Below are positions 24,592-61,212 of a stretch of DNA of 64,000 nucleotides, piece after piece. The notes under the pieces were generated by a model, which saw nothing but the letters and a program-made list of their open reading frames with translations, was not told the origin of the DNA and made no database searches. Position 1 is the first letter of the stretch. Each line of letters opens with the position of its first letter. The DNA comes from Candidatus Staskawiczbacteria bacterium. Its GTDB lineage: Bacteria; Patescibacteriota; Minisyncoccia; Minisyncoccales; Staskawiczbacteraceae. The stretch lies in contig CAILLM010000003.1 in assembly GCA_903835075.1 (NCBI GenBank), positions 1,002 to 65,001 of the forward strand, read 5' to 3'. The translations under genes were made by a program, and so were the position numbers.

Positions 24592-25131
24592 TCATTTTAT
24601 ACCAAATTTAAATTTAATGCCATCTTGTCCATCTATGTAATCCAATAAACCAAACCTAATATATTTTTTAATTTTAAAAAACTCCACCAAGGACTCAATC
24701 TCATTTTTACACTCATAAGGATATAAAAATATGCTTTCTTGCATTTCATAGAATCCCCCAGTTTTAAGCCTATATACTAGTGCTTTTCTACCCTTTTCGC
24801 ATTCTCTGGGTATATCGAAGGCGACCATTCTCCATTTACCGTCCCATTTCTCTCTTTTATAATTAAGCCGCCTAAATTTATAATTTATTGCCCGTAGAAT
24901 TCCTTTTTCAGTTAAGGAAACCAAAACCAACCCTTCATAATTTTTCTTTTTTTCAATTAATTTTTCTTTCTCCAGGTCGTTCACAGCCGAAGTCAACTGC
25001 TTTCCAGTATAAGAATGAATATCTTTCAACACCAGATTTATAATAAAAAATCTGGCATCACCATGCGCACCCATCTTTTCTCTGCTTAGATAATAAATAT
25101 TCCACAATATCTCCTCCAAAATTTCTCTCAT
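24592..25131 (-). CDS. PaaX-like / Cas2-fold winged-helix regulator (family common in CPR)
   Basis: 179 aa; WDGKWRMVAFDIPRECEKGRKALVYRLKTGGFYEMQESIFLYPY matches the PaaX-type C-terminal pattern; paralog at 48605-49132. Confidence 0.6.
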   Translation of the reverse strand: MREILEEILWNIYYLSREKMGAHGDARFFIINLVLKDIHSYTGKQLTSAVNDLEKEKLIEKKKNYEGLVLVSLTEKGILRAINYKFRRLNYKREKWDGKWRMVAFDIPRECEKGRKALVYRLKTGGFYEMQESIFLYPYECKNEIESLVEFFKIKKYIRFGLLDYIDGQDGIKFKFGIK

Positions 25132-30905: not shown

Positions 30906-33900
30906 TTATTTTCGACCTTTTTTTACAATTATTAAAACCACCATTACGCTCAACAGAATAACTATCACCAAGAAAACTATCATTATTTTCAAATTCCAAC
31001 TAAACCATGCAGGAAGAATGCTCTTTTTTTGTAATTCAACATCCATGTGGATCCCATTTCCACTTTGCACAACAAACGAACTGCTCTTATACTGGTAATA
31101 ATTTGGGGTATCAATGGTTAAGTAGTAAGTACCTTGAGGCACCAAGAAAGAGTATTTCCCTGTTTCATCTGTCACAATAGGATTTTTTTGCAAAAACTTC
31201 TCAGCTGGCCATAATTCATATTTATTTGTGCTTATATTGAGCTGATAAATAGAAACTGTTGCGTTTGGAACACGGGCTTGCATGCCAGAAATATTTTGGT
31301 AAATATATCCTTCGGGGTCAACAACCATTGTAAGGTGAGTTGTGGTAGGAACAGTTTTTTGATCTTTGTATTCTATAATAGTAATAACGTCATATTGCCC
31401 AGAAACAACGGGTGCATTAAACTCTACCTTAAATAACCCTGGCTTAACCTCCTGATAATCTGACTTTTGAATAAGCACGCCATCTGTTGGAACATTTTCT
31501 GATGTGGCAACAGCATTAGAAGCAGACAACGCTGCCCCAAAATAACCTGCCGAAAAACTGCTATTTTTCAACACCTGTGCACTTTGTGGGCTCTTTAACG
31601 TTATAATCTGTGTAACTCTGCTAGCAGGCTGTTCGGGCTTTATTACTAATTGCATTTGTATACCCGAGACTGTTGAAACCACTTGGCTTGCACCGCCCTG
31701 TTTATCTATTGAAAGGGCAGAAACAAAATCAATTAATCCTTGGGAAGCACTAGCAAAAACAACGTTACTTGGAATTTTAGCAAGTTTTGCAGGGGTAAGT
31801 TGTTCTACTGGTATTGCTTGATTTTGGGCAAGCGGGCTTAGTTGTAAAATTTCTGAAGGGGTAAATAATGTTTTGGTCAAACCAGGCAAATACAATTCTG
31901 TTTGAGCTAATTTGCTTATATCAGCAGGTTTTTTAATGTCTATTGATAAACTTTCAAGCGCTTTTTTAAGTTGAGGAATTTTATTTGAGAAAAATCTTAT
32001 GTCTGATGCAATTGGAGTTAATTCAAAGCCAGCAAGCGGGTTAACACTCATAAAATCTAAACCCTGAAGCGCAAGCGGAGTTGTTTTTGGAATTGCAACC
32101 TCTTTTTTGTTTGAAACAAAATTGCTAATTTCTTTGGCTACATTACTAATTTGTTTTACCACTGCTTCGGGAATATTTTGCAATTGCTGAATTATTGGGT
32201 TTTTTGAAATAACTGAAACAATGGTTGTCCCGCCAGGTGGTACTGGGCCACCTCCACAATTTACGCAATCAGAAGGACAAGTACCACAAGATTCATTTCC
32301 ATTACAAATTCCATCACCACAAGTTACTGCTGGAGGCGTTATTATTGCTGTTGCTGAACAATTAACGGTATCGCCACCATTTGACCCAGCGCAAGACCAT
32401 GCCCAAGGGCCAGTTCCAGATACGGTTGTAGGCGTTCCAGTTATACATAAGCCACCAGTTGGCGCCAAAACAAAACTTACACCATCAGACAAACCACATA
32501 CACCGTTAATTGGAACTTGTACGTCTTCGCCTCCACCATTTGTACCATTTGTGACAGTATTGCAACTAGCGTCTGTTCCACCGTTAGGACTTGTGCAACC
32601 CCATGACCATGGGCCAATGCCAGAAACTGTTGTTGGCGAGCCCTGCAAGCAAAGATTTTCTGTAGGAATAGTAGAAGGACTTTGGCCATCAGCCGAGCCA
32701 CACACACCATCGACTAAACCCGTAACATGATTACTACAAACTCCATCTATACATTGCAATTGCCCGTCGCAATCATTAATACTACCGCACTCAGCCCCTT
32801 CTGCACCATTAGTACACTTATTTATTGTGCTACACCAATTTGATAAACATTGTGAATCTGAAATGCAATACCCCCCATTTCCCATCAAGGTTGGTGATGT
32901 ACACTGATTTGTGTCCCAAGTTTGTCCGCTTGGGCAAGTAATTGTTCCACCATTATTAGATACTATTCCATTAATTATAAGCCCACCACTTAAATCAAGC
33001 GTTGCGTTGCTTTCCACCGTTACATCTCCATTTAGAGTGCCCGAGCCATTAACTGTGCCACCGGCAATATAAAAACCGATTCCTCCATCAATGTTGGTAA
33101 TTGTTGCTGGGCCGTTAATGGTTATGCTAGCGGTATATGCATCCGAACCATTATAAATACCATACCCACTGCTATTATTGTTTACAGTTCCACTAATGCT
33201 ATTAATGGATGACAAGTATCCATTAACTATTCCAGAACCCCAACTATTATTGTCAACAACTCCGCTGATATTATCAATTATGGCGTTATTCTCGTTCCTA
33301 ATTCCTTCATAACCGGAATTGTTAGTAATTATTCCGCTTATATCAGTAATGGTGCCGTAGTTAGTAATGCCAGTTCCTCCACCATTAGTCATAGTTCCAC
33401 TAATATCGCCGATAATACCTTCGTTCCAGAGCCCACTAAAGTAGGTATTATTAATCGTCGCGCTGATATTGGTTATTGCCGCACCAGGTGCAACGTAAAC
33501 CCCCATACTGCCAGCACCAGTACTATCAATTGTAATGTTTTGTATGGTAGCCTCTGCTCCGTAGGAAATATAAATTCCACTTTCTCCTGGAGTACTGCCA
33601 GAATTTTCAATAGAGTAAGTGTTTCTTCCATCTATAATTACACCAGTTACACCCGTGTCAACAGTAATGCAATTCCCGCTAGATGCCGTAAGGCTCTGCG
33701 TTAAATTATATGTTCCGCTTGAAACTATTGTTCCGCAAGAATCTACATTTATAGAACCGCCTTGTGCATCAAAACTTGGTAAAGAACAATAACCATCTAC
33801 ACAACTACCACTCACACAATCGCTGGGATCACCACACCCTGAGCCCGCAACCCCCTTGGATTCGCTACAAGCATTGCTTACACAGTAAGGATAATTATTG

Positions 33901-36900
33901 CCATCGCAATCCGAATAATAAAGGCAATATGCGCTATCACCACCACAAACACCGTTTATCCCACAACTAAACTGCCCATTACAACCATTATTAGCCCAAC
34001 AATCTTGCCCTGCATTGCCAGACGTGCAATAACCGTATGGGCTACATTGACCAGAAATACAGGTTTCATTAAGGTTACAACTGTCTCCGTCAGAAATAAG
34101 TGCTTGACAGAAACCTCCATTCCAGTATTTACCAGATCCGCAAATTACTGTTCCATTGTTACTGAATGATGATGAAAAACTCGGTGGACCATAGCTTACA
34201 CCGGTCATATCAATTGTTCCATAATTATATACAGAGCTTTGGTATAAACCACCATAAATGTAGTTATAATTTGCATCAACAGTTACTGTGCTATAAAAAT
34301 TTCCTGCATGGATTTCACCCATGCTAAGCTCTACTGGAGAATAGAAATATCCACCTGAAATCATTGCACCCGAGTTTAATACAACCGGAACATTAAATGT
34401 TCCTCCAGACACGTTTGTACCTTGGAAAGAAAGTGACCCGTTGCCATCAATTTGCCATGCGCCAGACCCAAAATTATATCCATAAGGAACCGTCACATAA
34501 GCGTTACCAAGGTGCACCGTTGAGCCATCAGGAGGAACTATATGGTTATCCCAATTTAATTGATCATCCCAATAAGTGCCGTTTCCCTGCCCAGTCCAAG
34601 TGAAAGAAGATGGCATACAGACACTATTTACGCAAGCTAAAAATCCTTCACACTCTGTGCTCGTGTTGCACGTTGCCCCCATTCCTCCGCAGGTATTATA
34701 AGGGGCGCCTGGGTCACGGTATGCAGAACAATTATTATTAGCACAATACATTCCGCTGTTATAGCCACCAGGACATGAAGCACCTACACCTCCACAAATA
34801 GTTTGACATTCACCACCCAAACCACCATCATAAGCATTTGTAGCACACTGAATACTTGTCGTACAACTTGCGCCATTATTTAAAAGTTGAGAACACTGGC
34901 TTCCGTCAAAATACTGACCATAATCACAAGAAGACACCGTACACTGATTTGTATTCCAAGACTTGCCACTTGGGCAAAGGTAGCCCCCACTATAATCTGT
35001 GACTGTTGCGCCAAGCATGTCTGGTGGACCATAACTTGTCCCGATTGCATCAATTGTTCCATAGTTATCTACGGTGCTGGTATAAGTTCCACCATAAATA
35101 TATGCACCAACTTCATTCAATACACTTACCGGGTACATACCATATTGGATTACGCCATAATTGTCTATTCCAATTCCGCCACCCGTGTTTGTCAGGGCTC
35201 CACTGATGTTTGCAATGGTGCCCATGTTGTTAATACCAAAACCAGCACCATTATTGTTAAAAGTCCCGCTGATATCGGTGATTATTCCGCCATTATTTTC
35301 TATGCCAGAAGCACCGTCGCTATTATTATCATTAACTACTCCACTAATATTGGTGATTGTTCCATAATTTAAAATCCCTGCACCAGAAGTACTAATTGTG
35401 AAAGTTCCGGTAATATCAGTTATAGTGCCATTATTAACAATTCCATACCCACTTGTATTATTGATTGTTACATTATCCAAAACAACTCCTCCGAAGTTGT
35501 CGTTTTTATTTGTATAACCATAAGGAATAACTGGACTATTTAGTGAATTTGAATCAATCATAATACTTGCACCCTCTGGTGGCAAGCCCAACGTCCCTCC
35601 TTCCGCCCAATTTTGGGAATCTGTCCAATTATCGCTGTTTCCGCCAACCCAGTGGAAAGTTGGAGCTGCTGCAGGGCATTGTTTTGCGTTCGGGTCCCAT
35701 GTCCCATTGTCAGGACAAATAATTGTCCCACTATTATTTACCGTAGCACCAGTTAAATCTGGCGGAGTCCCATCTGTATAGTCTATAGTTCCGTAGTTCG
35801 TTACAGTTCCTGCAAATGTACCACCTGTTATTGTGCCGCTATTTAGCACTAGAAAAGTAAAATTTCCACCGGTTATTGTACCACCATTTCCGCTATTTCC
35901 AACTGGTCCGTTAAATGTTCCACCAGTTATTGTACCACCATTACTGATATAATAACCACCGTTAAATGTTCCACCATTTATTGAAAAACTATTATTAAAA
36001 ATCATGATTGCCGACCCGCTATCCATGGTTACAGTACCCATGTTCATAGATCCACTAAAATTTATTACGGGATCAGCCATATTGCCAGTATCTGGAATAT
36101 AAATATCTGAACCATCTGGTGGCACAGCACCATCTTGCCAGTTAGCATCGGTGTTCCAGTCTCCGCCGTTATTCCCGCCAACCCAATAATAAATTGGGTC
36201 AACAATGTAATCAAAATCAACACTACCCGTAACCTTCAAATCAAATTTGTCAGTTGGTGTTTGTAGGTTTGTTAAAAAAACTTTATAGGTGTTGGCAGTT
36301 GTAATGCTATCAAAAGTAGCAACAATTGAGCCTTCTGTTGTATTACCATCTGCATCTGTATAAACCGGATAAACTTCTATTTTTGCAGGGCTATTTAGAT
36401 TTGTAGCCCTTGCATAAATAGTGTTATCATTTTTATTGTTTAGTGGGCTATCAAAAGTTACCCTAACAGATTGTCCGTTAGTTATTGTGGTGTAATTATT
36501 ATCTTGAGTTTTAACTGTGTCATAAATATCAGCTAAAATTGATTGGTCTGTATCAAGCTGAAATGCCTTAGAAATAAAAATGATATTAAAAATTTGTTCG
36601 GACAAATGGGGGACCGTCCATTCAACGTAATCTAAATAACCATCACTATTTGTGTCATAAGCGCTAAATACTACTTCTTGATTGCCTTGATTTTCCCATT
36701 TAATTTTAATTTTATCTTCTTGTCCTACCTTAAATATTTTTGGAATTTTTGTAGAAGCTAAAATATCCGTAAGCGGAGCTTGCGGATCTTCATTAGTGGC
36801 AGAAACTGTTACTTGTTGACCGGTGTTGGTAGTCTCTGAAACAATTTGTGGAGCAGGGGTATCATATTCAACAGCTATGTAGTCTGACAATGGCTCAGCT

Positions 36901-37697
36901 GGCAATGTTGGAGAAACTTCAGGGGTTGGCGCATCTGAATTTCGTTGTGAAGTAGCTTCAGTTGAGGATGGAGTTTCTATTGAAGTTGTTGGGACATCGG
37001 GTGTTACCGGCGAATCTTGAGTTTGTGCAACTTCAGAAGTTACTGGTGCTGTCGTCTGGCTACCGTCAGAAAGATTAACATATGTAGCATCTAAAGTAGA
37101 AATTGTACCTTGCCCAGCAGAACCATCAACAATTGATTGGACTACATCTGCCACGGGTGCTATATTTGCCACAGCATCACCTAAATCAGCAAACATATAT
37201 TTAAACGCACCTCCAATACTAGCCAAAGCAGTACTACATCCTTTTACAAAAACATTTTTAGAAATTTTCAATGGAGTTGCAGATAACTGCTGTTTCTGAA
37301 CCAATGATAGTTGTTGGGCTGTTTTCCTTGTAGATATATTTTTTGCTTGCTCTGCACTTACCGTTGTTAGCCTTATGTTTTGTGCCCCTCGTGGCAACTG
37401 CGCCAAAAATTTACCACTTATAATTTGACTTTTAGGAATCAATGTCACCCACTTAGCTGGTTGGCCGGCAACAATTTGTTCTTGTTTTATAGTAGAACCT
37501 TTTACAACCTTATTTGCAGGTATTTTTGGAAACAAAATAGCAGAACTAACCCCCAAAACTAAAAACAAAAATACAACTGAAACGCAAGACCAAATAATTA
37601 TATTTTTCTTTCTTTGTTTTTTTGCCAATTTTTTTCCTTCGTATGCGACAATAAGCTCTGGTGGAAAAACTATTTTTTTCTCTTTAGCGCCTGCCAT
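30906..37697 (-). CDS. Giant surface protein (2263 aa) built from six modules
   Basis: Continuous ORF. Modules: N-terminal TM anchor, shared stalk module, Gly/Asn-rich beta-helix-like repeats, Cys-rich knots, CarboxypepD_reg-like domain, C-terminal TM. N-terminal ~500 aa is paralogous to 41147-46126; C-terminal ~470 aa is paralogous to 37795-39138. Confidence 0.85.
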   Translation of the reverse strand: MAGAKEKKIVFPPELIVAYEGKKLAKKQRKKNIIIWSCVSVVFLFLVLGVSSAILFPKIPANKVVKGSTIKQEQIVAGQPAKWVTLIPKSQIISGKFLAQLPRGAQNIRLTTVSAEQAKNISTRKTAQQLSLVQKQQLSATPLKISKNVFVKGCSTALASIGGAFKYMFADLGDAVANIAPVADVVQSIVDGSAGQGTISTLDATYVNLSDGSQTTAPVTSEVAQTQDSPVTPDVPTTSIETPSSTEATSQRNSDAPTPEVSPTLPAEPLSDYIAVEYDTPAPQIVSETTNTGQQVTVSATNEDPQAPLTDILASTKIPKIFKVGQEDKIKIKWENQGNQEVVFSAYDTNSDGYLDYVEWTVPHLSEQIFNIIFISKAFQLDTDQSILADIYDTVKTQDNNYTTITNGQSVRVTFDSPLNNKNDNTIYARATNLNSPAKIEVYPVYTDADGNTTEGSIVATFDSITTANTYKVFLTNLQTPTDKFDLKVTGSVDFDYIVDPIYYWVGGNNGGDWNTDANWQDGAVPPDGSDIYIPDTGNMADPVINFSGSMNMGTVTMDSGSAIMIFNNSFSINGGTFNGGYYISNGGTITGGTFNGPVGNSGNGGTITGGNFTFLVLNSGTITGGTFAGTVTNYGTIDYTDGTPPDLTGATVNNSGTIICPDNGTWDPNAKQCPAAAPTFHWVGGNSDNWTDSQNWAEGGTLGLPPEGASIMIDSNSLNSPVIPYGYTNKNDNFGGVVLDNVTINNTSGYGIVNNGTITDITGTFTISTSGAGILNYGTITNISGVVNDNNSDGASGIENNGGIITDISGTFNNNGAGFGINNMGTIANISGALTNTGGGIGIDNYGVIQYGMYPVSVLNEVGAYIYGGTYTSTVDNYGTIDAIGTSYGPPDMLGATVTDYSGGYLCPSGKSWNTNQCTVSSCDYGQYFDGSQCSQLLNNGASCTTSIQCATNAYDGGLGGECQTICGGVGASCPGGYNSGMYCANNNCSAYRDPGAPYNTCGGMGATCNTSTECEGFLACVNSVCMPSSFTWTGQGNGTYWDDQLNWDNHIVPPDGSTVHLGNAYVTVPYGYNFGSGAWQIDGNGSLSFQGTNVSGGTFNVPVVLNSGAMISGGYFYSPVELSMGEIHAGNFYSTVTVDANYNYIYGGLYQSSVYNYGTIDMTGVSYGPPSFSSSFSNNGTVICGSGKYWNGGFCQALISDGDSCNLNETCISGQCSPYGYCTSGNAGQDCWANNGCNGQFSCGINGVCGGDSAYCLYYSDCDGNNYPYCVSNACSESKGVAGSGCGDPSDCVSGSCVDGYCSLPSFDAQGGSINVDSCGTIVSSGTYNLTQSLTASSGNCITVDTGVTGVIIDGRNTYSIENSGSTPGESGIYISYGAEATIQNITIDSTGAGSMGVYVAPGAAITNISATINNTYFSGLWNEGIIGDISGTMTNGGGTGITNYGTITDISGIITNNSGYEGIRNENNAIIDNISGVVDNNSWGSGIVNGYLSSINSISGTVNNNSSGYGIYNGSDAYTASITINGPATITNIDGGIGFYIAGGTVNGSGTLNGDVTVESNATLDLSGGLIINGIVSNNGGTITCPSGQTWDTNQCTSPTLMGNGGYCISDSQCLSNWCSTINKCTNGAEGAECGSINDCDGQLQCIDGVCSNHVTGLVDGVCGSADGQSPSTIPTENLCLQGSPTTVSGIGPWSWGCTSPNGGTDASCNTVTNGTNGGGEDVQVPINGVCGLSDGVSFVLAPTGGLCITGTPTTVSGTGPWAWSCAGSNGGDTVNCSATAIITPPAVTCGDGICNGNESCGTCPSDCVNCGGGPVPPGGTTIVSVISKNPIIQQLQNIPEAVVKQISNVAKEISNFVSNKKEVAIPKTTPLALQGLDFMSVNPLAGFELTPIASDIRFFSNKIPQLKKALESLSIDIKKPADISKLAQTELYLPGLTKTLFTPSEILQLSPLAQNQAIPVEQLTPAKLAKIPSNVVFASASQGLIDFVSALSIDKQGGASQVVSTVSGIQMQLVIKPEQPASRVTQIITLKSPQSAQVLKNSSFSAGYFGAALSASNAVATSENVPTDGVLIQKSDYQEVKPGLFKVEFNAPVVSGQYDVITIIEYKDQKTVPTTTHLTMVVDPEGYIYQNISGMQARVPNATVSIYQLNISTNKYELWPAEKFLQKNPIVTDETGKYSFLVPQGTYYLTIDTPNYYQYKSSSFVVQSGNGIHMDVELQKKSILPAWFSWNLKIMIVFLVIVILLSVMVVLIIVKKGRK

Positions 37698-41146: not shown

Positions 41147-44100
41147 TTAATTAATAATAAATGAAGTAGACCCTGTGCATGTCCCTTTTGTTCCAGTAGG
41201 CACCGCAACCTGCCAATAAACATTTTGAGTAACAGTTGGAGTTGATTGTGTTGGCTTGTTTAAATTTGCCCCAACATCAGTTGCTGTAACAGACAAAGCT
41301 GTTCCCGCACCATAACTAAAACTACTCAAATTATATTGCTGATTACCAACTGGTATAGAGGATCTAACCGAACACCCCAAATTGTTACCAGCAACTTTGA
41401 ATCCTGTTGCAATGTTACCGGTGTTAGTAACTGTTACTGTATGGTTTCCAGTTGTATTATGATTTGGAGTAAGTGAACCATAACTTATGGTTGCCCCAAC
41501 ATCAATAGATTTTAATGTATCCATTTCAATCCCCGAAGAAGTTGTTCCTGTACCCCCGCCAATGTGATCTGATGGCGTAATTTTGCAAAGCCAATTTTCA
41601 GAAGAATAAGTCCCCGAATCTGTTGCATCGGCGTAATAATAAACCGGGAATGTGCAAGTATAAATTTGCGTGTTACCCGACCCTCCCGAGGCAACACACT
41701 GGCTGGTGAGGGTATAATGGTTTGCCCTATCATCACTTGCGCCAACACCAATTCCGCTTCTATATAACACTGCAGTAACTCCAGTTAAGTCGGCGTACCC
41801 GTTAGCGTCGTAGGCAGTTGCCGAGCATACAACATTTTTAGTTGTCCCCTCCATTAAAGTTATGTCAGTTGAAGACAAAGTTGTGGCATCATAAGTTAAA
41901 ACACTTCCCGATATATACGGCAAAGTATTAAATTGCCAACCCAAGTTATTACCACCATCGGTGCTGTTTTGTTGTTGAATTGGCTGCGCTGCTCCGTTTG
42001 ACGCATTATTATCATAAACAGTTGCATATTGAACATAGGCATGGCCGTGGTTATCAGAAACAACAGCAATGTCTAAGCGTGCTCTACCAGCTTTAGCACC
42101 GTCGGTTCCGGCTTGATCAGATTTTAACAAAATATTGTGCCCATTTGAACCTTCCAATTGAAACGTGCCGGAAATTGTTGTGGTTGTTGCTTGCGGAAAA
42201 ATAATTATTTGGCTTGGCGTAATGGCTGTAAAATTATAAAACGTTGTTGTGCCAGAAATTGTTGTGGTTGCACCAGAAAATACAACCGCACCAAGTTGTG
42301 GCGTAAAAGTTCCTGTATTTGCCCAATTTCCTGTGTTTGTAATTCCATAATTGCTTCCACTTTTAGCATCAAGCGTACCGGCTGTAATATTTACTCCGGC
42401 CACCGTAATATTTGTTGGCAACGTAAATGTTCCGCCATTGCCGTTTATTTTTAAAATTGCATTTGTGTAAGTCCAATTTTTAATATCTCTTGTACCAGAA
42501 GTAGCAGTATATTCCACCGTTGAACCAGCGCTTAGCGTTGGCGTTGAAACAGTTTCTCCGCCTTGCAGTTGAAGCTTTGCAGTTGAAACAAAAGTTGGCG
42601 AAGTTAAATTATTCCCAGCTAAATTAAGAACCCCAGTAGAACTTAAGGTTGTGCTTACTGCCGATTGATTTCCAGCCAAGGTTACTGTGTTTGAGTCAAT
42701 TACAACCGTATCATAAGAACCAGGATAACCCACCCCCTCTACATTTCCCGCTTTTCCCCAAGTAGCACCTAAGTTCCAATTTCCGTTTACAGCATCGTTG
42801 AAAGAAATTGGCGAAGTTGAACCACCATCAGTTATTGTCCAGCCATAAGTTCCTGTTAAAACTCCGCGTGCGGTTGCCGGAGCACCTGTATAATATTTTG
42901 CACCACCTCCGCTAAAGGTTATCCCTGATTTTACGACTTGCCCAGACCAGCCTACTAATATGTTGCTATAGTTGATAGAAGATAACCCAGAGCTTGTGAA
43001 CATACTAGCCATACCTCCGGCAGCAGTAACTCCAGTCACATTCCAAGTGGCAAGATTTTGATTAAATACAGTGGCGCCATTAAACATATTACTCATTGTT
43101 GTAACACTTCCCGTGTTCCAACCACTTATGTTTTGATTAAAAGCGGTACCCGTAAACATATAACTCATATCTGTTACATTCGCAGTGCTCCAACCGCTTA
43201 TATTTTGATTAAAAGCCCCGTCGTATCCAAACGCATAACGCATGTCCGTAACACTTGACATATTCCAACTTCCAATTGGTTGGTTAAATGGTGCGTTAAA
43301 AAACATCGTATTTATAGATTTAGCACTAATCGTATTCCAGTTCCCAATTGGCTGGTTGAATCCTGACGCTCTAAATGTACCAGCAAAACTCGTAACTTTT
43401 GAAACGTCCCAATTATTTATTGTATTGCTACCACCGTTATTAAAGGCGGTGGCGGTAAAAAACATAGACCCCATATTAATAAGACTAGTTGGAGTCCAAG
43501 CTCCAATGTTTTGGTTAAAAGCAGTGTCTGAATCAAACATGGACAGCATAGTTGTAACTTTGGAAACATTCCAACCTCCAATATTTTGGTTGAACACAGC
43601 ATCCGATTGAAACATATAACTCATATCCCCCACATTCCCTGTGCTCCAACTTCCGATGGGTTGGTTAAAAACAGTCGAAGTAAACATCCATTTCATATCA
43701 GTAACTTTTGATGTATCCCAATTATTTATCGTATTACTACCACCGTTATTAAAGGCACTGGCGTTGCGGAACATGCTATTCATGGTTGTTACAGCTTCTG
43801 TACTCCAACCACCAATGTTTTGGTTAAAGGCCGTACCAAAAAACATACTAGCCATACCCGTGACCTTTGCGGTGTTCCAACTTCCAATGGACTGATTAAA
43901 ATTAGTGTCATAAGCAAACATAGCGGTCATATCTGTAGCACTTATGGTGCTCCAATTTCCAATGGGTTGATTAAATGCAGTATCCTGATAAAACATATAG
44001 CCCATTGTCCCAACCTTTGAAACATCCCAGTTATTTATTGTATTGCTACCACCGTTATTAAAGGCATTAGCACCAAAAAACATATTTGCCGTGTCTGTAA

Positions 44101-46126
44101 CACTTCCAGTATTCCAACCTCCAATGTTCTCATTAAAAGCAGCGGCACTATAAAACATGCGGTTTAAACTTGTAACGCTTGCCATATTCCAACTGCCCAT
44201 AGAAGGAGCAGTTATAATTCCGCTGGCCCTGAAAGCGCTACCCATGTTTGTTATTCCTGTCGTGTCCAAAGCGTCTACTGCGGTAATTCTTAAATTAGTG
44301 GTTCCATAAAAATAACTACCAACATTTCCCAATCTCAATATTCCCCATTGCGAAATAGTTTTTATCTTTAAAACGTCTCCAGTATTATTGAATTGCCAAC
44401 CAGTAAGCGTGCCCGTGATGCTCAGCGTATAGGTTCCCGAAGTTGCGTAAGTATGAGTGACTGCCGCCTGGTTCCATGCGGTAATTGTGCTGGTACTGGT
44501 GTCTCCCCAATCTACTACAAAATTATAAGTGCCTCCATTATACAAAGGAAGTTTAATCTGGCTTGCAGTGCTAGAACCCGTTGAAGTTAAAGTTGTATCC
44601 CATGTTGAAATAAAAGGACTTGGGTCAACAATGTAATCAAAATCCACACTTGCATTAACAACTTTTAAGTCAAAAAGGTCTGTTGGTTTTTGCAAATTTT
44701 GAAGTAAAATTCTGTATTTCTTCGCCTCGCCGAAGCCCGAAGGCGAAGGCGGGTCCGACGTAATATTACTAAAATCGGGGTTCATTCCGTCATTGACTGG
44801 CACTAATTTGTTACCCTCAGTTTGATTTCCATCGGCGTCTGTATAAACGGGGTAGACATCTATTGAACCTTCCATACCTGAATCGGTTGGTCTGGCAAAA
44901 ACAGTTATATCATTTCCAGTACTTAGAATTTGGTCAAAAGTTACCCGCACATAATTATCTTGCGGGACAGTTGCATAAACACCATCTTGCGTGGCAACAG
45001 TGTCATAAATATCAGCTGTTATGTTTTTATCAGCATCTAACTGAAAAGCCTTTGAAATAAAAATAATATCAAAAACTTGCTCAGACAAATGGGGGACAGT
45101 CCATTCCAAATAATCTATCATTCCATTACCATCTAAATCTTTGGCAGTAAATGGAACTTCTTGCCCATTACTATTTTTCCATTTAATTTTTATTTTATTT
45201 TCATCTCCAACTTTGTAGATTTCGGGGATTGTTGTAAAAGCCAAAACATCTGTTAATGGAGTTGTTTCGTCTTTAGCTGAAATAGTAACTTGTTGGCCAG
45301 TGTCTGTGTTGGTTTTCTCAATCACGGGAGCTGGGGCAACATATTCCACGGCAATACAATTATCAGTTTCATCTCCTTGGCAAGGTTGTTTGTCAATTAG
45401 GGGTTGATCTTGAACATCAGGGCTGGGGCTCGCTGGGTCAGCAGACTCAGTGTCCGGTTGAATAACAGGATCAGCAGGTTGCGCGGGCAATTCAGCTGGC
45501 GTCTCGGCGAGCGTTGCTTCCGAGCCTGACGTTGCTTCCGGAGTTGGTGTTACCTCCGGCGTGGTCAAGACTTCTGCTGTGCCAGATACATCAACAAATT
45601 GCGAACTATTATCTGGCAAAATAGCTGAGACAGCTCCTTCCACGGCCTGTTGCTCATCAGCTAAAAATAAGTTCATGCCATAAGCCAAGCTACCCAAAAA
45701 ATTTTTCGCATAATCTTTTTTAGCTACTGGCTTAACTACTTTTAATACATTTAATTTTTGGTCTATGGTAATTTCTGCACCCTTATTTTTCTCTATATTT
45801 CTTATTTCTGCAGGTGTTATTTTCTTAATTTTTATGTCTGTAGCATTCTTAGGAATTTTCACTAAGTGTTTACCATTTTTTATTTCATTAGCATCAACCA
45901 AAGTAACCATTTTTATAGGCAACCCCGCAACTACTTGTGCAACAGGTATAGTTCGTGCGTTTTTAAATGTGAATGTTTCTTCTCGCGAATGACTCAACTC
46001 AAACCAAACACCCCAAGCCACAAACAGCAGCACTAGGGCAAATAAAAATCCCAAAATTATATTTTTATTTTTGGTAAAAAAATTCACTAAAAACTTGCAA
46101 AATTGGTTTACAACTTTATTTTGCAT
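41147..46126 (-). CDS. Giant surface protein (1659 aa) built from five modules
   Basis: Continuous ORF. Modules: N-terminal TM anchor, shared stalk module, about 17 DUF285/BspA-type 26-residue repeats, beta-helix-like region, C-terminal domain shared with 40153-41097. Repeats of the form MF..a.aFNQ.IG.W.ts.Vt.M. Confidence 0.85.
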   Translation of the reverse strand: MQNKVVNQFCKFLVNFFTKNKNIILGFLFALVLLFVAWGVWFELSHSREETFTFKNARTIPVAQVVAGLPIKMVTLVDANEIKNGKHLVKIPKNATDIKIKKITPAEIRNIEKNKGAEITIDQKLNVLKVVKPVAKKDYAKNFLGSLAYGMNLFLADEQQAVEGAVSAILPDNSSQFVDVSGTAEVLTTPEVTPTPEATSGSEATLAETPAELPAQPADPVIQPDTESADPASPSPDVQDQPLIDKQPCQGDETDNCIAVEYVAPAPVIEKTNTDTGQQVTISAKDETTPLTDVLAFTTIPEIYKVGDENKIKIKWKNSNGQEVPFTAKDLDGNGMIDYLEWTVPHLSEQVFDIIFISKAFQLDADKNITADIYDTVATQDGVYATVPQDNYVRVTFDQILSTGNDITVFARPTDSGMEGSIDVYPVYTDADGNQTEGNKLVPVNDGMNPDFSNITSDPPSPSGFGEAKKYRILLQNLQKPTDLFDLKVVNASVDFDYIVDPSPFISTWDTTLTSTGSSTASQIKLPLYNGGTYNFVVDWGDTSTSTITAWNQAAVTHTYATSGTYTLSITGTLTGWQFNNTGDVLKIKTISQWGILRLGNVGSYFYGTTNLRITAVDALDTTGITNMGSAFRASGIITAPSMGSWNMASVTSLNRMFYSAAAFNENIGGWNTGSVTDTANMFFGANAFNNGGSNTINNWDVSKVGTMGYMFYQDTAFNQPIGNWSTISATDMTAMFAYDTNFNQSIGSWNTAKVTGMASMFFGTAFNQNIGGWSTEAVTTMNSMFRNASAFNNGGSNTINNWDTSKVTDMKWMFTSTVFNQPIGSWSTGNVGDMSYMFQSDAVFNQNIGGWNVSKVTTMLSMFDSDTAFNQNIGAWTPTSLINMGSMFFTATAFNNGGSNTINNWDVSKVTSFAGTFRASGFNQPIGNWNTISAKSINTMFFNAPFNQPIGSWNMSSVTDMRYAFGYDGAFNQNISGWSTANVTDMSYMFTGTAFNQNISGWNTGSVTTMSNMFNGATVFNQNLATWNVTGVTAAGGMASMFTSSGLSSINYSNILVGWSGQVVKSGITFSGGGAKYYTGAPATARGVLTGTYGWTITDGGSTSPISFNDAVNGNWNLGATWGKAGNVEGVGYPGSYDTVVIDSNTVTLAGNQSAVSTTLSSTGVLNLAGNNLTSPTFVSTAKLQLQGGETVSTPTLSAGSTVEYTATSGTRDIKNWTYTNAILKINGNGGTFTLPTNITVAGVNITAGTLDAKSGSNYGITNTGNWANTGTFTPQLGAVVFSGATTTISGTTTFYNFTAITPSQIIIFPQATTTTISGTFQLEGSNGHNILLKSDQAGTDGAKAGRARLDIAVVSDNHGHAYVQYATVYDNNASNGAAQPIQQQNSTDGGNNLGWQFNTLPYISGSVLTYDATTLSSTDITLMEGTTKNVVCSATAYDANGYADLTGVTAVLYRSGIGVGASDDRANHYTLTSQCVASGGSGNTQIYTCTFPVYYYADATDSGTYSSENWLCKITPSDHIGGGTGTTSSGIEMDTLKSIDVGATISYGSLTPNHNTTGNHTVTVTNTGNIATGFKVAGNNLGCSVRSSIPVGNQQYNLSSFSYGAGTALSVTATDVGANLNKPTQSTPTVTQNVYWQVAVPTGTKGTCTGSTSFIIN
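44720..44757. repeat. GC hairpin element (family GCCTCGCCGAAGC..GCGAAGGCGGG) in-frame in the giant gene
   Basis: CTTCGCCTCGCCGAAGCCCGAAGGCGAAGGCGGGTCC, translated as PPSPSGFGEAKK; related copies at 57390, 56711 (inverted) and 55869. Confidence 0.8.
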
Positions 46127-48604: not shown

Positions 48605-49132
48605 TTAGACTTTCTCAATTAAAAATATTTTGACATACTTTTCTAAAGAATGTGCTTGAAGCAAAGTTTCTGTTTTTTCTGAAACATCATACGGAGTTAT
48701 CCAAACGCTCTGCTGGAATAATTTATATCCCAAATTATGCAAGATACTTCTAAGCAAATCTCTGTCATTTCTGCGGTTTCTGGGTATATCAAAAATCATC
48801 ATTATCCACTTTCCATCTTTTCTTTTCTCAGCTTCTCCTAGCTTAAAACTAGCCATTATCGCCTTTTCGATTCCATCTTTTGTTAAAATTATTGCTTTTT
48901 TATTTTCTAAATTTTTTACTTTTATGTAACCCTTTCTTTTAAGATAATAGATAAAATTTCCAAATTGCTTCTCACTTTTTTCTTTCCGATACTTTTTATA
49001 TATAGGATTTTTTGGGCCTGGCAAAAAATTGTTCATCGTTATTGGTTGAGCTGAATAACGAACAACCTCTCCCGCTAAATATATAAATTTATAAACATCC
49101 CAAAGAAATTTATCGGTAATTGGAATTTTCAT
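48605..49132 (-). CDS. PaaX-like / Cas2-fold winged-helix regulator, second paralog
   Basis: 175 aa; KDGKWIMMIFDIPRNRRNDRDLLRSILHNLGYKLFQQSVWITPY. Confidence 0.6.
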   Translation of the reverse strand: MKIPITDKFLWDVYKFIYLAGEVVRYSAQPITMNNFLPGPKNPIYKKYRKEKSEKQFGNFIYYLKRKGYIKVKNLENKKAIILTKDGIEKAIMASFKLGEAEKRKDGKWIMMIFDIPRNRRNDRDLLRSILHNLGYKLFQQSVWITPYDVSEKTETLLQAHSLEKYVKIFLIEKV

Positions 49133-49549: not shown

Positions 49550-49571
49550 ATATTATTTATATTAGACTATT

Positions 49572-50955: not shown

Positions 50956-50985
50956 AAAAAGTAGACGCCCGACGTCTACTTTTTT
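50956..50985 (-). terminator. Rho-independent terminator after the 177-aa gene
   Basis: GTAGACG-CCCGA-CGTCTAC flanked by A and T runs. Confidence 0.65.
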
Positions 50986-52127: not shown

Positions 52128-52138
52128 AAATTAAATGT

Positions 52139-52250
52139 AGCGAGGCAGTGAATTCAAAGCGTACCCTGCAGGCCCGCCCTGGGCGGGCCGAAGCCTGAGT
52201 GAGTTGCGCGCTGGCGCAACGAACGCTAGCGGAGAATTTACTGCCGAGCG
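52139..52250. repeat. Composite GC-rich palindromic element (B-type core)
   Basis: Near-identical to 27398-27510 (AGCGA-GGCAGTGAATTC ... GAATTTACTGCC-GAGCG); ends 6 nt from the upstream stop. Confidence 0.9.
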
Positions 52251-52255
52251 GGAAT

Positions 52256-55238: not shown

Positions 55239-55425
55239 TAAGTTCTTTTAAAATTTTATCTAAATCCAACCCATAGGCCTTACAAATTTCTCCAACTTGC
55301 AAGTCATCCATTTCAAACTCGGCCATTGGGCAAGACAAGCACGGCACCCCATTTTTTGCTAAAATTTTATCGGCACCTTTTTGTTTAATTATTTTTGCTA
55401 AAGTAGTAGTTTTTGTTATTTTCAT
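55225..55425 (-). CDS. DUF1858-type redox-disulfide small protein
   Basis: 66 aa; GVPCLSCPMA...TLGEICKAYGLD-like pattern. Confidence 0.6.
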   Translation of the reverse strand: MKITKTTTLAKIIKQKGADKILAKNGVPCLSCPMAEFEMDDLQVGEICKAYGLDLDKILKELNVPK

Positions 55426-55431
55426 AAAATT

Positions 55432-55561
55432 AGCGAGGCAGTGAATTCGTAGCGTGCCCTGCAGGCAATTTTGCTTGGTCCGCCGATAGGCGGAAAATTG
55501 CCGAAGCCTGAGTGAGCCCGCGCTGGCGGGCGAACGCTAGCGAAGAATTCTCTGCCAAGCG
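55432..55561. repeat. Composite GC-rich palindromic element (B-type scaffold with substituted hairpins)
   Basis: AGCGA-GGCAGTGAATTC ... GAATTCTCTGCC-AAGCG; hairpins GGCAATTTT..TCCGCC-GATA-GGCGGA..AAAATTGCC and CCCGC-GCTG-GCGGG. Confidence 0.9.
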
Positions 55562-55563
55562 TC

Positions 55564-56958: not shown

Positions 56959-57100
56959 AGCAAGGCAATTTTTTTTAGCGAGGGAGTTAATTTTCAGCGT
57001 ATTTCAGTACACGAAGTGACTGACGAAGCCATTTAGACGCGAAGCGTATCAATGGCGTTAGCAGAAAATTAATTGCCGAACGAAAAAATTTTATTACCGA
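56959..57100. repeat. Composite GC-rich palindromic element, nested copy (A-type core)
   Basis: AGCAA-GGCAATTTTTTTT-AGCGA-GGGAGTTAATTTTC ... GAAAATTAATTGCC-GAACGA...; near-identical to 12827-12973. Confidence 0.9.
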
Positions 57101-57106
57101 TTATTA

Positions 57107-57480: not shown

Positions 57481-57517
57481 ATTATATCAGGTTTAAGGAC
57501 CGTGTCAATACCCTAGC

Positions 57518-58726
57518 CTATTTTATAATTCCGCCACCCAACACCTGGTTGCCTTTATAGAAAACTGCTGACTGGCCTGAAGTAATTGCGCGGTCTGATT
57601 TTTTAAAAACTAACTTACCGTCTTTATATAAAGTTGCTTTTTGCAAAGGTGCCCTATAACGCGTGCGAGCATCTACCAGCACTGGAAAAGCTTCTGGTTT
57701 ATTTATCCAATTTATGTTTACAATTTTTGCTTCTTTCACTGCCAAATCTTTTTCTGTACCAACATAAATAATATTTTTCTTTATGTCTTTTTTAACTACA
57801 AAATAAGGTCCGTGCCCATCTTTAATGTCTAAACCATGCCTTTGGCCAATTGTGTAGTAATAAACGCCATCGTGCTTACCTATTTTTCTGCCGTCTAAAG
57901 AAATTATTTCTCCTATTTTTGGCTTTATATACATTTTTAGGAAAGCCTTCATATCAAACTGCCCAATAAAGCAAACCCCTTGGCTGTCTTTTTTCTCAGC
58001 ATTTTCTAATTTAAATTTTTTAGCTAATTTTCTAACTTCCGGCTTTGTAAGCCCACCAATTGGAAATAAGATTTTGTTTAACTGATTTTTCTTAATTGCA
58101 TACAAAAAATATGTTTGATCTTTATTTTGGTCAACAGCCTTTAGCAAGCGAGGCAAAGCAATGGAGCGAGGCAATGAACTTTTTCGAGAAGAAGGTGCCC
58201 CGTAGAGAGGCTCTCCTCGCAGAAAAAGTTTATTGCCGAGCGAAGTTTGCTGGCGGGCGAACGCTAGCGAAGAACTCAGCGCCGAGCGATTTTTGTCGAG
58301 CGTAGTCTGCGCATAGTGGCCAGTTGCCACAAAATCAAAACCTTCTTTCATGGCCCTATCAAAAAAATAACCAAATTTTATAATTTTATTGCACATTACG
58401 TCGGGGTTTGGCGTAATTCCCTTTTTATATGAATCGATCATATATTTGCCCACTTCTGCCTCATATTCTTTAGAATAATCCCAAGTTAAAAAAGGGATTT
58501 GCAATCTAGCACAAGCTCGCATAGCATCCTGCCTGTCTGTTTTCCAAATGCACTCTTTACCTAAAATTTCTGGAGCCCATTGCTTCATATAAATTCCAAC
58601 AACATCAACCTGCCTGCCGGCAGGCAGGGACCAGCCCTTTTTTAGTAGTGCAGCCGAAACTGAGCTGTCTACACCACCAGACATCGCCACGGCAATTCTT
58701 ATTTTTTGTTTACTGCTCTTATGCAT
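57518..58726 (-). CDS. mnmA: tRNA 2-thiouridine(34) synthase MnmA carrying two repeat-derived inserts
   Basis: 402 aa; PP-loop AMSGGVDSS, ATGHYA, KDQTYFLY. Extra ~45 aa lie between the last two motifs. Confidence 0.9.
   Translation of the reverse strand: MHKSSKQKIRIAVAMSGGVDSSVSAALLKKGWSLPAGRQVDVVGIYMKQWAPEILGKECIWKTDRQDAMRACARLQIPFLTWDYSKEYEAEVGKYMIDSYKKGITPNPDVMCNKIIKFGYFFDRAMKEGFDFVATGHYAQTTLDKNRSALSSSLAFARQQTSLGNKLFLRGEPLYGAPSSRKSSLPRSIALPRLLKAVDQNKDQTYFLYAIKKNQLNKILFPIGGLTKPEVRKLAKKFKLENAEKKDSQGVCFIGQFDMKAFLKMYIKPKIGEIISLDGRKIGKHDGVYYYTIGQRHGLDIKDGHGPYFVVKKDIKKNIIYVGTEKDLAVKEAKIVNINWINKPEAFPVLVDARTRYRAPLQKATLYKDGKLVFKKSDRAITSGQSAVFYKGNQVLGGGIIK
58144..58302. repeat. Composite GC-rich palindromic element inserted in-frame in mnmA
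   Basis: AGCAAGCGA-GGCAAAGC..-AGCGA-GGCAATGAACTTTTTC ... GAAAAAGTTTATTGCC-GAGCGA-..GCTGGCGGGCGAACGCTAGCGAAGAACTCAGCGCC-GAGCGA. Confidence 0.85.
58609..58628. repeat. 20-bp perfect GC palindrome in-frame in mnmA
   Basis: CCTGCCTGCCGGCAGGCAGG, translated LPAGRQ. Confidence 0.9.
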
Positions 58727-59428: not shown

Positions 59429-59523
59429 TGAGGCAATAAATTTTTTGAAGCGAGGCAGTGAATTCGAAGCGTACCCTGCAGGCCCGCCCTGGGCGGGCCG
59501 AAGCCTGAGTGAGCCCGCGCTGG
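59429..59523. repeat. Composite GC-rich palindromic element, right half missing
   Basis: ..GAGGCAATAAATTTTTTGA-AGCGA-GGCAGTGAATTCGAAGCG...GAGTGAGCCCGCGCTGGA, ending 2 nt from the iscS stop codon. Confidence 0.85.
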
Positions 59524-59524: not shown

Positions 59525-60808
59525 TTAAACCCTTACATTTACTGGCGAAATTCTTCTTAAATCTGCTACAATTTTTGGTAAAACTTTCAAAACATAATCT
59601 AAATCTTTTTTTGTAGTACTTCTGCCCAAAGTGAAACGCAAATTACCGTTGGCATATTCATATGGCCTTGAAAGGGCTAAAATGACGTGTGAGGGCTCTA
59701 AACTTTGCGAGTCACATGCAGAGCCAGTTGAACAATAAATTCCATATTTATCAAGCCACAAAAGCATTGCCTCTCCTTCAATATCTAAAATAGAAATATT
59801 TATATTATTTGGTAATCGTTTTTGTGCGTGTCCGTTTAGAACAACCTTAGAAACTTTTTTGGAAACTTCTTTTATAAAATAATCTCGCAACTTGGCTTCT
59901 TTTGCAGATTCTTTTCCCGTTGCCTGAGAAATTTCTAAAGCCTTGGCCAAACCAATAATTCCCGAAATATTTTCTGTGCCACTGCGCTTGCCATTTTCTT
60001 GACCGCCCCCAAAAACTATTGGGTCAATTTTGGTACCAGCTTTAACATATAAGACTCCTGTGCCCTTAGGCCCATAAATTTTACTCCCATTTAAAGTTAA
60101 TAGGTCAACTCCTAATTTTTGAACATCTAAATCTAAATAGCCAGCTGCCTGGCAAGCGTCTGTATGAAAATAAATTGGGGTGCTTATATTTCTTTTGAAT
60201 CTATTTGCTCTTATTTCTTTAATAATTTTTCCTATTTCTTCTATTGGCTGAATGGTTCCAATTTCATTATTTGCATACATAATTGAAATCAAAACTGTTT
60301 CATCTGTTATTACTTTTTTAAAGTCTTCTAAAAGTAAAATTCCATCTTTATCAACTTTTGAAGAAGTCACCTTAAAACCCTCTTTTTCTAATTGCTCACA
60401 TGGGTACAAAACCGCATGATGTTCTATATTAGAAGTAATTATATGAGCCGATAAGGCCGAGCTAAATAAATTTTTGGAGGAGGGGTAATCGCCTTGAGGA
60501 CATTCCCCCGACGAGCAAAAATTTGATTTGGCGAGGCCGAGCGAACGCGCGCAGGCTCTCGCCACGCCTAAAATAGCTAAATTATCACTTTCTGTCCCAG
60601 AACCTGTAAAAATTATTTCTTCTGGTTTACAATTTAAAATTTGAGCTATTGATTTTCTAGCTTTTAAAATTGCTGTTTTTGATTCACGGCCTGCTGTGTG
60701 CAAAGATCCTGCATTACCATAAATTTTATTATAATAAGGCTCCATTGCTTTTAACACACGAGAATCTGTTGGAGTTGTAGATGCATTATCTAGGTAAATT
60801 TTATTCAT
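59525..60808 (-). CDS. iscS: Cysteine desulfurase carrying a repeat-derived insert
   Basis: 427 aa; YLDNASTTP, SKIYGPKGTG, STGSACDS. Extra segment RACARSLGLAKSNFCSSGECPQGDYPSSKNLFSSALS precedes HIITSNIEHHAV. Confidence 0.9.
   Translation of the reverse strand: MNKIYLDNASTTPTDSRVLKAMEPYYNKIYGNAGSLHTAGRESKTAILKARKSIAQILNCKPEEIIFTGSGTESDNLAILGVARACARSLGLAKSNFCSSGECPQGDYPSSKNLFSSALSAHIITSNIEHHAVLYPCEQLEKEGFKVTSSKVDKDGILLLEDFKKVITDETVLISIMYANNEIGTIQPIEEIGKIIKEIRANRFKRNISTPIYFHTDACQAAGYLDLDVQKLGVDLLTLNGSKIYGPKGTGVLYVKAGTKIDPIVFGGGQENGKRSGTENISGIIGLAKALEISQATGKESAKEAKLRDYFIKEVSKKVSKVVLNGHAQKRLPNNINISILDIEGEAMLLWLDKYGIYCSTGSACDSQSLEPSHVILALSRPYEYANGNLRFTLGRSTTKKDLDYVLKVLPKIVADLRRISPVNVRV
60445..60566. 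repeat. C-type palindromic element derivative inserted in-frame in iscS
   Basis: Arms AAATAAATTTTTGGAGG / GCAAAAATTTGATTT match the arms of 49431-49549; flanked by GCCGAGC and GGCGAGGCCGAGCGA. Confidence 0.75.
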
Positions 60809-61212
60809 TTTGTTAAACTTGCCAAAGTTATTGAATATAAAGTTTTTGATAAAGATTGCCCTACCTTATCCCAAACATTTTTTGACACACATTTTTTAGC
60901 CTTACTACATAGCACACAATTAACAGGATTTATCTTTCCGTCTATGGTTTCCACTATAATTCCTGCGGTAATTAGTTTCGATGATTTTGCCAAATAATAA
61001 CCACCATTAGCGCCGTGTATGGATGAAACTAACCCTGCTTTCTCTAAACAGCTAAAAATTTTACTTAAAAATTCAAAAGGCACTTCTTCAATATTCGAAA
61101 TTTGTCTTATAGAAACAGCCTTTTTACCGTGCCTACCGGCAGGCAGTCTTTTATTACGGGCGAGATGCACCATTGCAGTAAGTCCATATTCGGCTTTTTT
61201 TGATATTTTCAT
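60805..61212 (-). CDS. Rrf2-family (IscR-like) transcriptional regulator
   Basis: 135 aa; wHTH N-terminus, C-x2-C-x5-C cluster-ligand-like motif, 4-nt overlap with iscS; contains an LPAGRH insert. Confidence 0.8.
   Translation of the reverse strand: MKISKKAEYGLTAMVHLARNKRLPAGRHGKKAVSIRQISNIEEVPFEFLSKIFSCLEKAGLVSSIHGANGGYYLAKSSKLITAGIIVETIDGKINPVNCVLCSKAKKCVSKNVWDKVGQSLSKTLYSITLASLTK
61130..61145. repeat. GC palindrome (short variant) in-frame in the Rrf2 gene
   Basis: TGCCTACCGGCAGGCA, translated LPAGRH. Confidence 0.8.

Follow-up and report, generated by a model that had tools for sequence, protein, structure and literature searches.

The window analysed here is a 64,000-nt stretch of the genome of a Candidatus Staskawiczbacteria bacterium (contig CAILLM010000003.1). 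Its minus strand carries mnmA, the gene of a tRNA-modification enzyme, and within this gene lies a 156-nt segment of repeat-family DNA that keeps the reading frame, is absent from the nearest orthologs and is matched at the same site elsewhere by other repeat subfamilies. The explanation that we consider very probable is a selfish hairpin insertion, behaving like the Rickettsia palindromic elements (RPEs) and the MITEs (miniature transposable elements with inverted repeats), which the enzyme would tolerate in a permissive loop where such insertions recur. In-frame palindromic selfish DNA in essential genes was so far largely deemed a peculiarity of Rickettsia. It is now found in the Candidate Phyla Radiation (CPR), whose genomes are among the smallest and most streamlined, in genes coding for a tRNA-modification enzyme and a cysteine desulfurase.

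Limits and layout of the segment inserted in mnmA

The insertion was defined exactly by aligning mnmA with its orthologs, a check proposed in a preliminary description of the window made from the sequence alone, whose main points on the segment were all borne out. The alignments included two syntenic relatives, L002 (the same as L005; contig JBAZUH010000001.1) and L004. The preliminary description placed an in-frame element of ~160 bp at 58144-58302; these coordinates were accurate, the measured segment covering 156 nt at 58148-58303. The gene, the segment and its parts are the following:

57518..58726, minus strand: mnmA, intact coding sequence of 402 aa with the SGGVDSS PP-loop, catalytic Cys112 and Cys252 and the three MnmA domains
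58148..58303, minus strand: whole inserted segment, codons T142-R193 (52 aa, 156 nt), delimited by codon alignment with L002 and L004, ortholog alignments and tblastn gaps
58147..58164, plus strand: second left terminus AGCGAGGCAAAGCAATGG, the left end of an outer element or a duplicate; read as SIALPR
58165..58243, plus strand: inner A-type element of 79 nt, AGCGAGGCAAT...ATTGCCGAGCGA; minus-strand reading SLGNKLFLRGEPLYGAPSSRKSSLPR
58170..58185, plus strand: left inverted-repeat arm GGCAATGAACTTTTTC, 16 nt, paired in both folds
58186..58221, plus strand: GC-rich core of the inner element, with its own small hairpin (stem 58197-58211)
58222..58237, plus strand: right inverted-repeat arm GAAAAAGTTTATTGCC, 16 nt, paired in both folds
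58249..58290, plus strand: B-type intergenic repeat, right half only, GCTGGCGGGCGAACGCTAGCGAAGAACTCAGCGCCGAGCGA; read as RSALSSSLAFARQ
58291..58303, plus strand: degenerate third right terminus TTTTTGTCGAGCGT, 71-81% identical to other right termini; read as TLDK

Empty-site orthologs have four codons (KNGK) where the window has 52, a net gain of 48 residues (144 nt). The closest orthologs, P0004 and P0005, are 88-92% identical to the window protein outside the insert and read ATGHYAQ-T/I-KNGK-LLKAVD (AQTKNGKLMKAV and AQIKNGKLLKAV); the window reads ATGHYAQT-(52 residues)-LLKAVD. The spacing between the ATGHYA and KDQTYF motifs, first estimated, correctly, at about 60 residues compared to about 15 in other MnmA proteins, is 62 residues in the window and 14 in P0004/P0005. 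When the protein is aligned to the solved structure 2hma, residues 147-192 are opposite three residues only. The minus-strand ORF (open reading frame) crosses the segment without a stop codon to yield ..DKNRSALSSSLAFARQQTSLGNKLFLRGEPLYGAPSSRKSSLPRSIALPRLLKAV.., and the peptide quoted in the preliminary description was reproduced exactly from ORF 57518..58726. The segment is absent from the closest orthologs, and the four-residue KNGK turn was replaced, so that the event was not a clean insertion.

The description of the segment as a nested element was fair but simplified its layout, which is more exactly a composite of two to three units. Two left termini (58147 and 58165) and three right termini (58235, 58281 and the degenerate one at 58297) are found on its plus strand. 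The arms of the inner element are 94% complementary, and its core is also present in the intergenic metagenome copy L150 and, in part, in the mnmA insert of locus L009. A spacer of five bases separates the inner 79-nt unit from the B-type right half. The latter, already recognized as such in the preliminary description, aligns with all four B-type copies of the window; positions 58249-58288 match the copy 55522-55561 with 88% identity across 40 nt (E=3e-7). At the left end of the insert AGCGAGGCAA recurs 18 nt apart, and the second left terminus is missing from L002. Judging from the sequences, the window allele may derive either from an L002-like allele to which flanks were added or from a B-type element that was already in place when the inner unit entered it. 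The predicted RNA hairpin of the segment has a free energy of -50.7 kcal/mol. The fold of the 159-nt region keeps the inner hairpin, and its overall stability is modestly unusual (RNA z = -2.1).

The host gene

The identity of mnmA is supported by matches to PF03054, PF20259 and PF20258 (Pfam; N-terminal HUP, PRC-barrel and C-terminal barrel domains) and to the solved MnmA chains of S. pneumoniae, E. coli and other organisms (E=1e-71 to 2e-83, the latter value for PDB 2hma). The PP-loop motif SGGxDS, the two catalytic cysteines and the domain set that characterize MnmA are all present, with S16-S22, C112 and C252 invariant across the MnmA alignments. Gene calls on 8 contigs, each from a separate sample, give this same 402-aa protein without any difference, which shows that the insert is no assembly artefact. 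Between the window and L002 the protein is 87% identical, compared to 59% identity at third codon positions. This much larger divergence at third positions indicates purifying selection on mnmA.

The repeat family in the window

The two termini AGCGAGGCA and GCCGAGCGA occur nine times each in the window against 0.31 and 0.08 occurrences expected, respectively. These counts are far above chance and bear out the earlier assignment of the extra DNA to the same repeat family as the intergenic elements. All 18 matches are found on the plus strand and none on the minus strand, which carries nearly all genes of the window (~35% G+C); the family is thus strand-polar. Its form on the strand opposite the genes is 5'-AGCGAGGCA ... 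TGCCGAGCGA-3', with inverted-repeat arms and a variable core hairpin. The 64 kb hold about 12 element copies, a multiplicity of palindromic repeats that is a hallmark of RPEs:

5049-5182, 12827-12973, 27391-27510, 49431-49550, 52132-52251, 55425-55562, 56973-57106 and 59430-59523: element copies, all in one orientation, opposite the genes

Nearly all copies start 0-4 nt past the stop codon of the upstream gene, and several occupy the entire intergenic space. They are found within core operons (e.g. rpsG-fusA) and also upstream of secY. Three of them are nested (49431/49451, 12827/12844 and 59430/59449). A B-type copy without right half (59442-59523), ending 1 nt from the iscS stop codon, is nested behind the A-type left arm GAGGCAATAAATTTTTTGA (59430-59448). 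The iscS gene itself (59525..60808, minus strand) carries a second large in-frame repeat insert of 30 residues (CARSLGLAKSNFCSSGECPQGDYPSSKNLF; 60464-60553) that is absent in L004. Its core (60458-60535) shares 95% identity with a copy that lies between genes in L002 (19195-19272), and iscS of L002 has only a short remnant (GAGCCAAAATTTGATTTGGCGAG) at the insert site. In-frame, stop-free copies, another RPE hallmark, are found in mnmA and iscS of the window, as well as in mnmA and a tgt-like gene of the metagenome loci described below.

The family in metagenomes and the folding of its elements

Metagenomes were scanned for the two termini spaced 50-80 nt apart, and 67 complete elements (L085-L151) were retrieved, mostly from groundwater and sediment samples. 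Each copy was oriented 5'-TCGCTCGGCAAT...ATTGCCTCGCT-3'. The elements measure 73-99 nt, and the constant ends AGCGA / GAGCGA travel with them. The six bases upstream are almost purely A/T, and 42 of the 67 copies are directly followed by a T. The final gene-context analysis placed 57 copies between genes. The gene upstream of the intergenic copies has the same orientation in 49 cases and the opposite one in 6; the element starts within 6 nt of the upstream stop codon in 33 of the 49 co-oriented copies. Nesting was observed in L126, L096/L132, L131 and L138. Intergenic copies often have stop codons in one or more frames.

Five of the 67 complete copies lie in frame inside genes: four at the mnmA site (L096, L132, L114 and L126) and one (SLGNQNFSAASPLLQGSLSRKNLLPRS) in a 397-aa ORF of L087 (Ga0101944_10014185), which by-eye reading of its translation makes look like tgt, coding for a tRNA-guanine transglycosylase; this would be a second enzyme of tRNA modification with a copy. 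L091 has an additional, partial copy at the mnmA site. Three further copies (L103, L137 and L147) were placed inside an ORF by the gene-context analysis, but the true start codon is probably located just downstream of them.

In a set of 37 copies the arm pairs do not vary, while each subfamily has a core of its own. RNAalifold applied to these copies recovered only the invariant arm pairs, with no compensatory change, the cores being too heterogeneous to align. The strand opposite the genes (AGCGAGGCA...) folds better, by 2-4.6 kcal/mol, in 50-53 of 56 distinct copies (p ~1e-9). This asymmetry arises in the termini and arms, not in the cores, through tandem G-A mismatches in place of C-T. Many cores have C-GAA-G triloops on this same strand. 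A scan of the viral contig collection gave 0 matches to the element, and an Rfam scan of the whole window identified one tRNA and no RNA family for the elements. A protein search with the 52-residue insert peptide gave no hit, no candidate having enough words in common with it. No description of this hairpin family was found when the paper library was searched for palindromic, MITE or repetitive extragenic palindromic (REP) elements in CPR, Patescibacteria or Parcubacteria.

Evidence for mobility or horizontal spread

The order Rrf2-iscS-nifU-mnmA-csoR is shared between the window and L002. The mnmA gene of L002 has the inner unit alone at the insert site, identical to that of the window at 78 of 79 positions. 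Identity over the remainder of the gene is 79.4%, or 59% if third codon positions alone are counted, and nowhere in it does a stretch of 28 codons exceed 94%. The inner unit also shares 73 of 79 positions with the intergenic copy L150, while the mnmA copy of L114 is identical at 74 of 76 positions to the intergenic copies L112 and L140 from the same site. L004 has an empty mnmA site, and its 21 kb contain one match to the right terminus and none to the left one. Syntenic sites differ in the presence or absence of an element between the window and its relatives. The phylogenetic tree of MnmA gives 0% bootstrap support to monophyly of the filled alleles. The window protein groups with empty-site alleles, in a clade with P0003, P0004 and P0005 that has 92% support.

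A segment at the same place in distant orthologs had been considered in the preliminary description as a sign of an ancestral domain. Such orthologs exist but do not argue for one: their segments belong to different mobile-repeat subfamilies, each with near-identical intergenic counterparts, and are interleaved with empty KNGK sites, so that no ancestral protein domain is at stake.

Recurrent occupation of the mnmA site

The linker that carries the insert was inspected in the 115 nearest MnmA orthologs. It has a minimal length of 12 residues in 40 of them and is longer in the other 75, reaching up to 80 residues. At least three repeat families are found in the long linkers (SLGNK...LLPR, LAKSNF and the AT-rich EIRN/KLQTTNY). 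On the MnmA tree, filled alleles are scattered among empty ones, and the empty sites keep the ancestral KNGK turn. Outside Parcubacteria, MnmA proteins mostly have 25-30 residues over the linker span, a few having more (e.g. some Saccharibacteria). Judged by these alignments, the mnmA site is a recurrent insertion hot spot across Parcubacteria. With inserts in about two thirds of these orthologs, nature provides a test of the amount of foreign peptide that a loop of an enzyme can take up.

Some mnmA alleles have the left arm only (TSLGNKLF-KAK; positions 4703-4780 of L008 and orthologs P0025, P0038, P0039 and P0069). Their peptide GNKLF resembles the native NGKLL strand. From their sequence they look like deletion derivatives in which repeat-derived residues replace the native strand.

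Consequences for the protein

A model of the window MnmA was built with AlphaFold (AF2) using the 115-sequence alignment. Its mean pLDDT (predicted local distance difference test) is 87 and its pTM (predicted template modelling score) 0.85; residues ~150-190 have block means of 40-58. The insert is the sole long low-confidence stretch of the model. It lies between strands 139-141 and 194-196, which makes it the tip of a beta-hairpin. Elsewhere the fold is preserved, as shown by target-normalised TM (template modelling) scores of 0.88-0.89 in comparison to 2hma/2det (Foldseek). The modelling suggested in the preliminary description thus predicts a low-confidence loop at a beta-hairpin tip, and the 52 inserted residues are probably a floppy loop. 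In all seven insert-bearing genome loci found by tblastn, the insert keeps the reading frame and has no stop codon. The open frame of the copies inside genes, as opposed to the stop codons of the intergenic ones, speaks for in-gene copies being filtered by translation and not removed beforehand. Inserts of this kind inflate and distort CPR protein families and their alignments, and low-complexity segments of CPR proteins that have no explanation at present may often be repeat DNA.

Origin of the segment and alternative explanations

According to the selfish-insertion reading, the segment is a composite of non-autonomous GC-rich hairpin repeats whose family has spread through Parcubacteria. The 79-nt unit, the B-type half and spare termini occupy the codons of a beta-hairpin tip in the N-terminal catalytic domain. 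The product would be a disordered surface loop tolerated by the enzyme, and the insert would persist as selfish or neutral DNA, as RPEs do. Three causes may concur to make the site a hot spot: the hairpin tip is presumably permissive in structure, the family appears to prefer AT-rich targets, and resident termini together with the AT-rich apex may attract nesting or recombination, elements being swapped at a fixed junction. Several observations weigh against this reading. A target-site duplication, which is a hallmark of MITEs, was sought in the flanks of the 67 metagenome copies and not found. A Pfam scan of 44 of the 68 window ORFs revealed no transposase, recombinase, integrase or Y1 enzyme. 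At the mnmA site the subfamilies share the junctions ACT|TCGCTC and CCTCGCT|TG, and none of them retains the codons of the native turn, the loss of KNGK being a replacement and not a clean insertion. Swapping of elements or recombination between alleles fits these shared junctions no less well than does repeated transposition de novo. Shared junctions and missing turn codons together suggest that later elements nest into, or recombine with, a resident one. That the element is highly conserved from one genome to another might, besides, reflect selection for a function.

We regard it as unlikely that the loop was exapted, i.e. that the peptide, or an RNA hairpin in the isc-mnmA operon, serves in partner binding, regulation, or mRNA processing or stability, although such a role would explain the retention and conservation of the loop. 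The element is indeed far more conserved between genomes than the synonymous sites of its host gene, and a G-A/G-P-S-P-R-K motif recurs in many ortholog inserts. Six elements are found at 55.4-60.6 kb, in the dense iscS-nifU-mnmA-csoR-copA stretch, and intergenic copies are co-oriented with transcription inside housekeeping operons. A function of the loop is, however, difficult to reconcile with the lack of insert in 40 of the 115 orthologs, the two nearest included, and with inserts that come from unrelated repeat families and exceed the minimal linker by up to 68 residues. The frame in which the element is read differs between alleles, the model shows the segment as disordered, and conservation across the family is limited to the arms while cores vary. 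That the mature MnmA lacks the segment, because it is excised at the DNA or RNA level or bypassed by the ribosome, is highly improbable. The stability of the predicted hairpin is in favour of such a removal, as is the description of introns as frequent in Patescibacteria in published abstracts. Removal would not require that every insert-bearing allele seen be a multiple of three nucleotides and stop-free, as they are, and the stop codons frequent in intergenic copies make the open in-gene copies look filtered by translation. A self-splicing intron or intein was rejected: Rfam has no match to an intron or ribozyme, group I and group II introns included, in the window, 156 nt is far under the size of self-splicing introns, and the peptide has no intein blocks.

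It is very unlikely, though less so than removal, that the elements never transposed and that slippage in replication, or a switch of template, made palindromes grow locally, the copies then being homogenised by gene conversion. The missing target-site duplications and transposase would be in agreement with this origin, as would the short direct duplications of termini within the insert and the junctions that are fixed across subfamilies. It does not account for near-identical copies at non-homologous sites (iscS and the L002 intergenic copy; mnmA and L150) or for the presence/absence differences at syntenic sites, and gene conversion within a genome cannot give 99% identity between genomes whose genes are 20% apart. 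Damaged genes accumulate in small symbiont-like genomes and repeats can misassemble; even so, the chance that mnmA is a decaying pseudogene, or the segment an assembly chimera, is next to negligible. The ORF is full-length, with all catalytic motifs and the signature of strong purifying selection given above (87% amino-acid versus 59% third-position identity), the identical protein is found on 8 contigs in independent samples, and synteny with relatives is conserved.

A more elaborate proposal, which is conceivable but doubtful, is that the family would be no passive MITE but a Parcubacteria-wide, strand-polar hairpin system that integrates by site-specific recombination, probably of single strands, via its conserved termini. 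Resident copies would act as landing pads, and the intergenic copies, placed just past stop codons in core operons, would have a role at the mRNA level. Landing pads would account for nested copies, for junctions that do not vary, and for an mnmA hairpin that is occupied with codon precision in most lineages.

Relation to known repeat systems

The hairpin family is likened to known systems by its behaviour and was not assigned as a member of the RPEs, the MITEs or the REPs with their associated tyrosine transposases (RAYTs). Strict polarity, abutment on stop codons, nesting and a codon-precise hot spot are unusual habits of the family; polarity and stop-codon placement give a concrete handle for finding the mobilising enzyme.

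The parallel to RPEs drawn in the preliminary description holds for their behaviour as summarised in PMC10969869, where the work of Ogata et al. (2000) is reported to the effect that for some families nearly half of the copies lie in genes. Within the scope of that summary, the likeness comprises hairpin-capable repeats of ~100-150 bp in a small AT-rich genome, found between genes as well as in frame inside unrelated housekeeping genes, where they are read through, and their division into several subfamilies; insert positions may likewise be compatible with the protein fold. The likeness is one of behaviour, and the phylum (Patescibacteria/Parcubacteria) is a different one. The present family differs further by having only 5 complete in-gene copies, plus the partial one of L091, out of 67 complete copies, and by their concentration at one codon position of one gene. 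It is also strictly strand-polar, abuts stop codons, nests often and replaces a native turn.

The family shares with MITEs its terminal inverted repeats (16-nt arms, 94% complementary), small size and absence of transposase coding capacity, as well as its multiple non-coding copies, presence/absence variation and occasional in-frame fusions. It differs from them by the absence of target-site duplications in the 67 flanks and by having no known parent insertion sequence with the same ends. Its outermost termini are moreover direct-repeat-like (GCGAG / CGAGCG) and not inverted, which gives the element its polarity.

REPs and bacterial interspersed mosaic elements (BIMEs) are likewise GC-rich imperfect palindromes found just past stop codons and inside operons and conserved across related species. 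The hairpin family is longer (75-130 nt), has a variable core and lacks a GTAG-type 5' tetranucleotide. REPs (20-40 nt) are extragenic by definition while this family is also found inside genes. The hallmarks of REP/RAYT systems were not observed, and the scan of 44 of the 68 ORFs in the window revealed no RAYT/Y1 transposase.

In fungal mitochondria, the mobile GC clusters and double-hairpin elements (PMC4478555) are also GC-rich hairpins of AT-rich compact genomes, mostly intergenic. Their hairpin is constrained, and merging and shuffling of palindromic units builds composites. They are organellar and unrelated in sequence, and the AG target duplication proposed for them is not seen here. 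The attC sites of integrons are 60-140-nt imperfect palindromes that likewise follow a stop codon directly and all point the same way; their ends are conserved, their centre varies and some of their bases are unpaired. An attC reading was nevertheless rejected: the family has no GTTRRRY core sites, integrase or cassette array, and its neighbours are core housekeeping genes (rpsG-fusA, secY, iscS). A role as transcription terminator was also rejected, the elements not being terminator-like and B-type copies lying inside operons such as rpsG-fusA; ordinary terminators are found elsewhere in the window (50956-50984 and 49228-49249).

Other features of the window

A second in-frame insert near the N-terminus of MnmA represents a second, shorter repeat class within the same gene. 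It corresponds to a 7-residue gap in 2hma, L002 and L004. Inserts of this shorter class (18-21-nt palindromes such as CCTGCCGGCAGGCAGG, giving LPAGRQ-like peptides) were found in at least six genes of the window:

58609..58633, minus strand: second in-frame insert in mnmA, 21 nt (WSLPAGR), with the 20-nt palindrome CCTGCCTGCCGGCAGGCAGG (stem 58609-58628)
48040-48060, 52053-52079, 58613-58633, 61129-61146, 62264-62284 and 62944-62961; also 53586-53609: shorter-class inserts

Their hosts comprise a metallo-beta-lactamase-fold protein, mnmA, Rrf2, a SpoU methylase, superoxide dismutase and others. Orthologs in L002/L004 lack these inserts, but a gene with a copper-chaperone domain carries a separate one (ARLPAGRQELA) in L002.

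A perfect sigma-70-type promoter match (12/12; TTGACA, 16-nt spacer, TATAAT and upstream TG) is found at 57481-57508 of the minus strand, just downstream of mnmA and upstream of a csoR-like repressor gene. The product of the minus-strand gene 50396-50884 is pilin-like and has a methylation motif at its N-terminus. It gave a weak, below-threshold match to ComP_DUS, the receptor pilin for DNA uptake sequences (E=7e-4), of note only in view of the many over-represented oriented motifs of the genome and the sole hint at a DNA-uptake-sequence reading of the elements, which was dropped. Two identical perfect 29-nt palindromes (TAACTTTTTTGCCACGTGGCAAAAAAGTT; 24562-24590 and 25165-25193) flank a 179-aa gene (24592..25131) with a PaaX_M (Cas2-like) domain, whose paralog (48605..49132) adjoins the nested element 49431-49550. 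Two giant ORFs, 41147..46126 (1659 aa) and 30906..37697 (2263 aa), are richer in GC and have degenerate tandem repeats of 72-75 nt, found at 43061-44201 in the 1659-aa ORF. Both probably code for surface proteins; their syntenic neighbour in L002 has DUF2341, Laminin_G_3 and fn3 domains.

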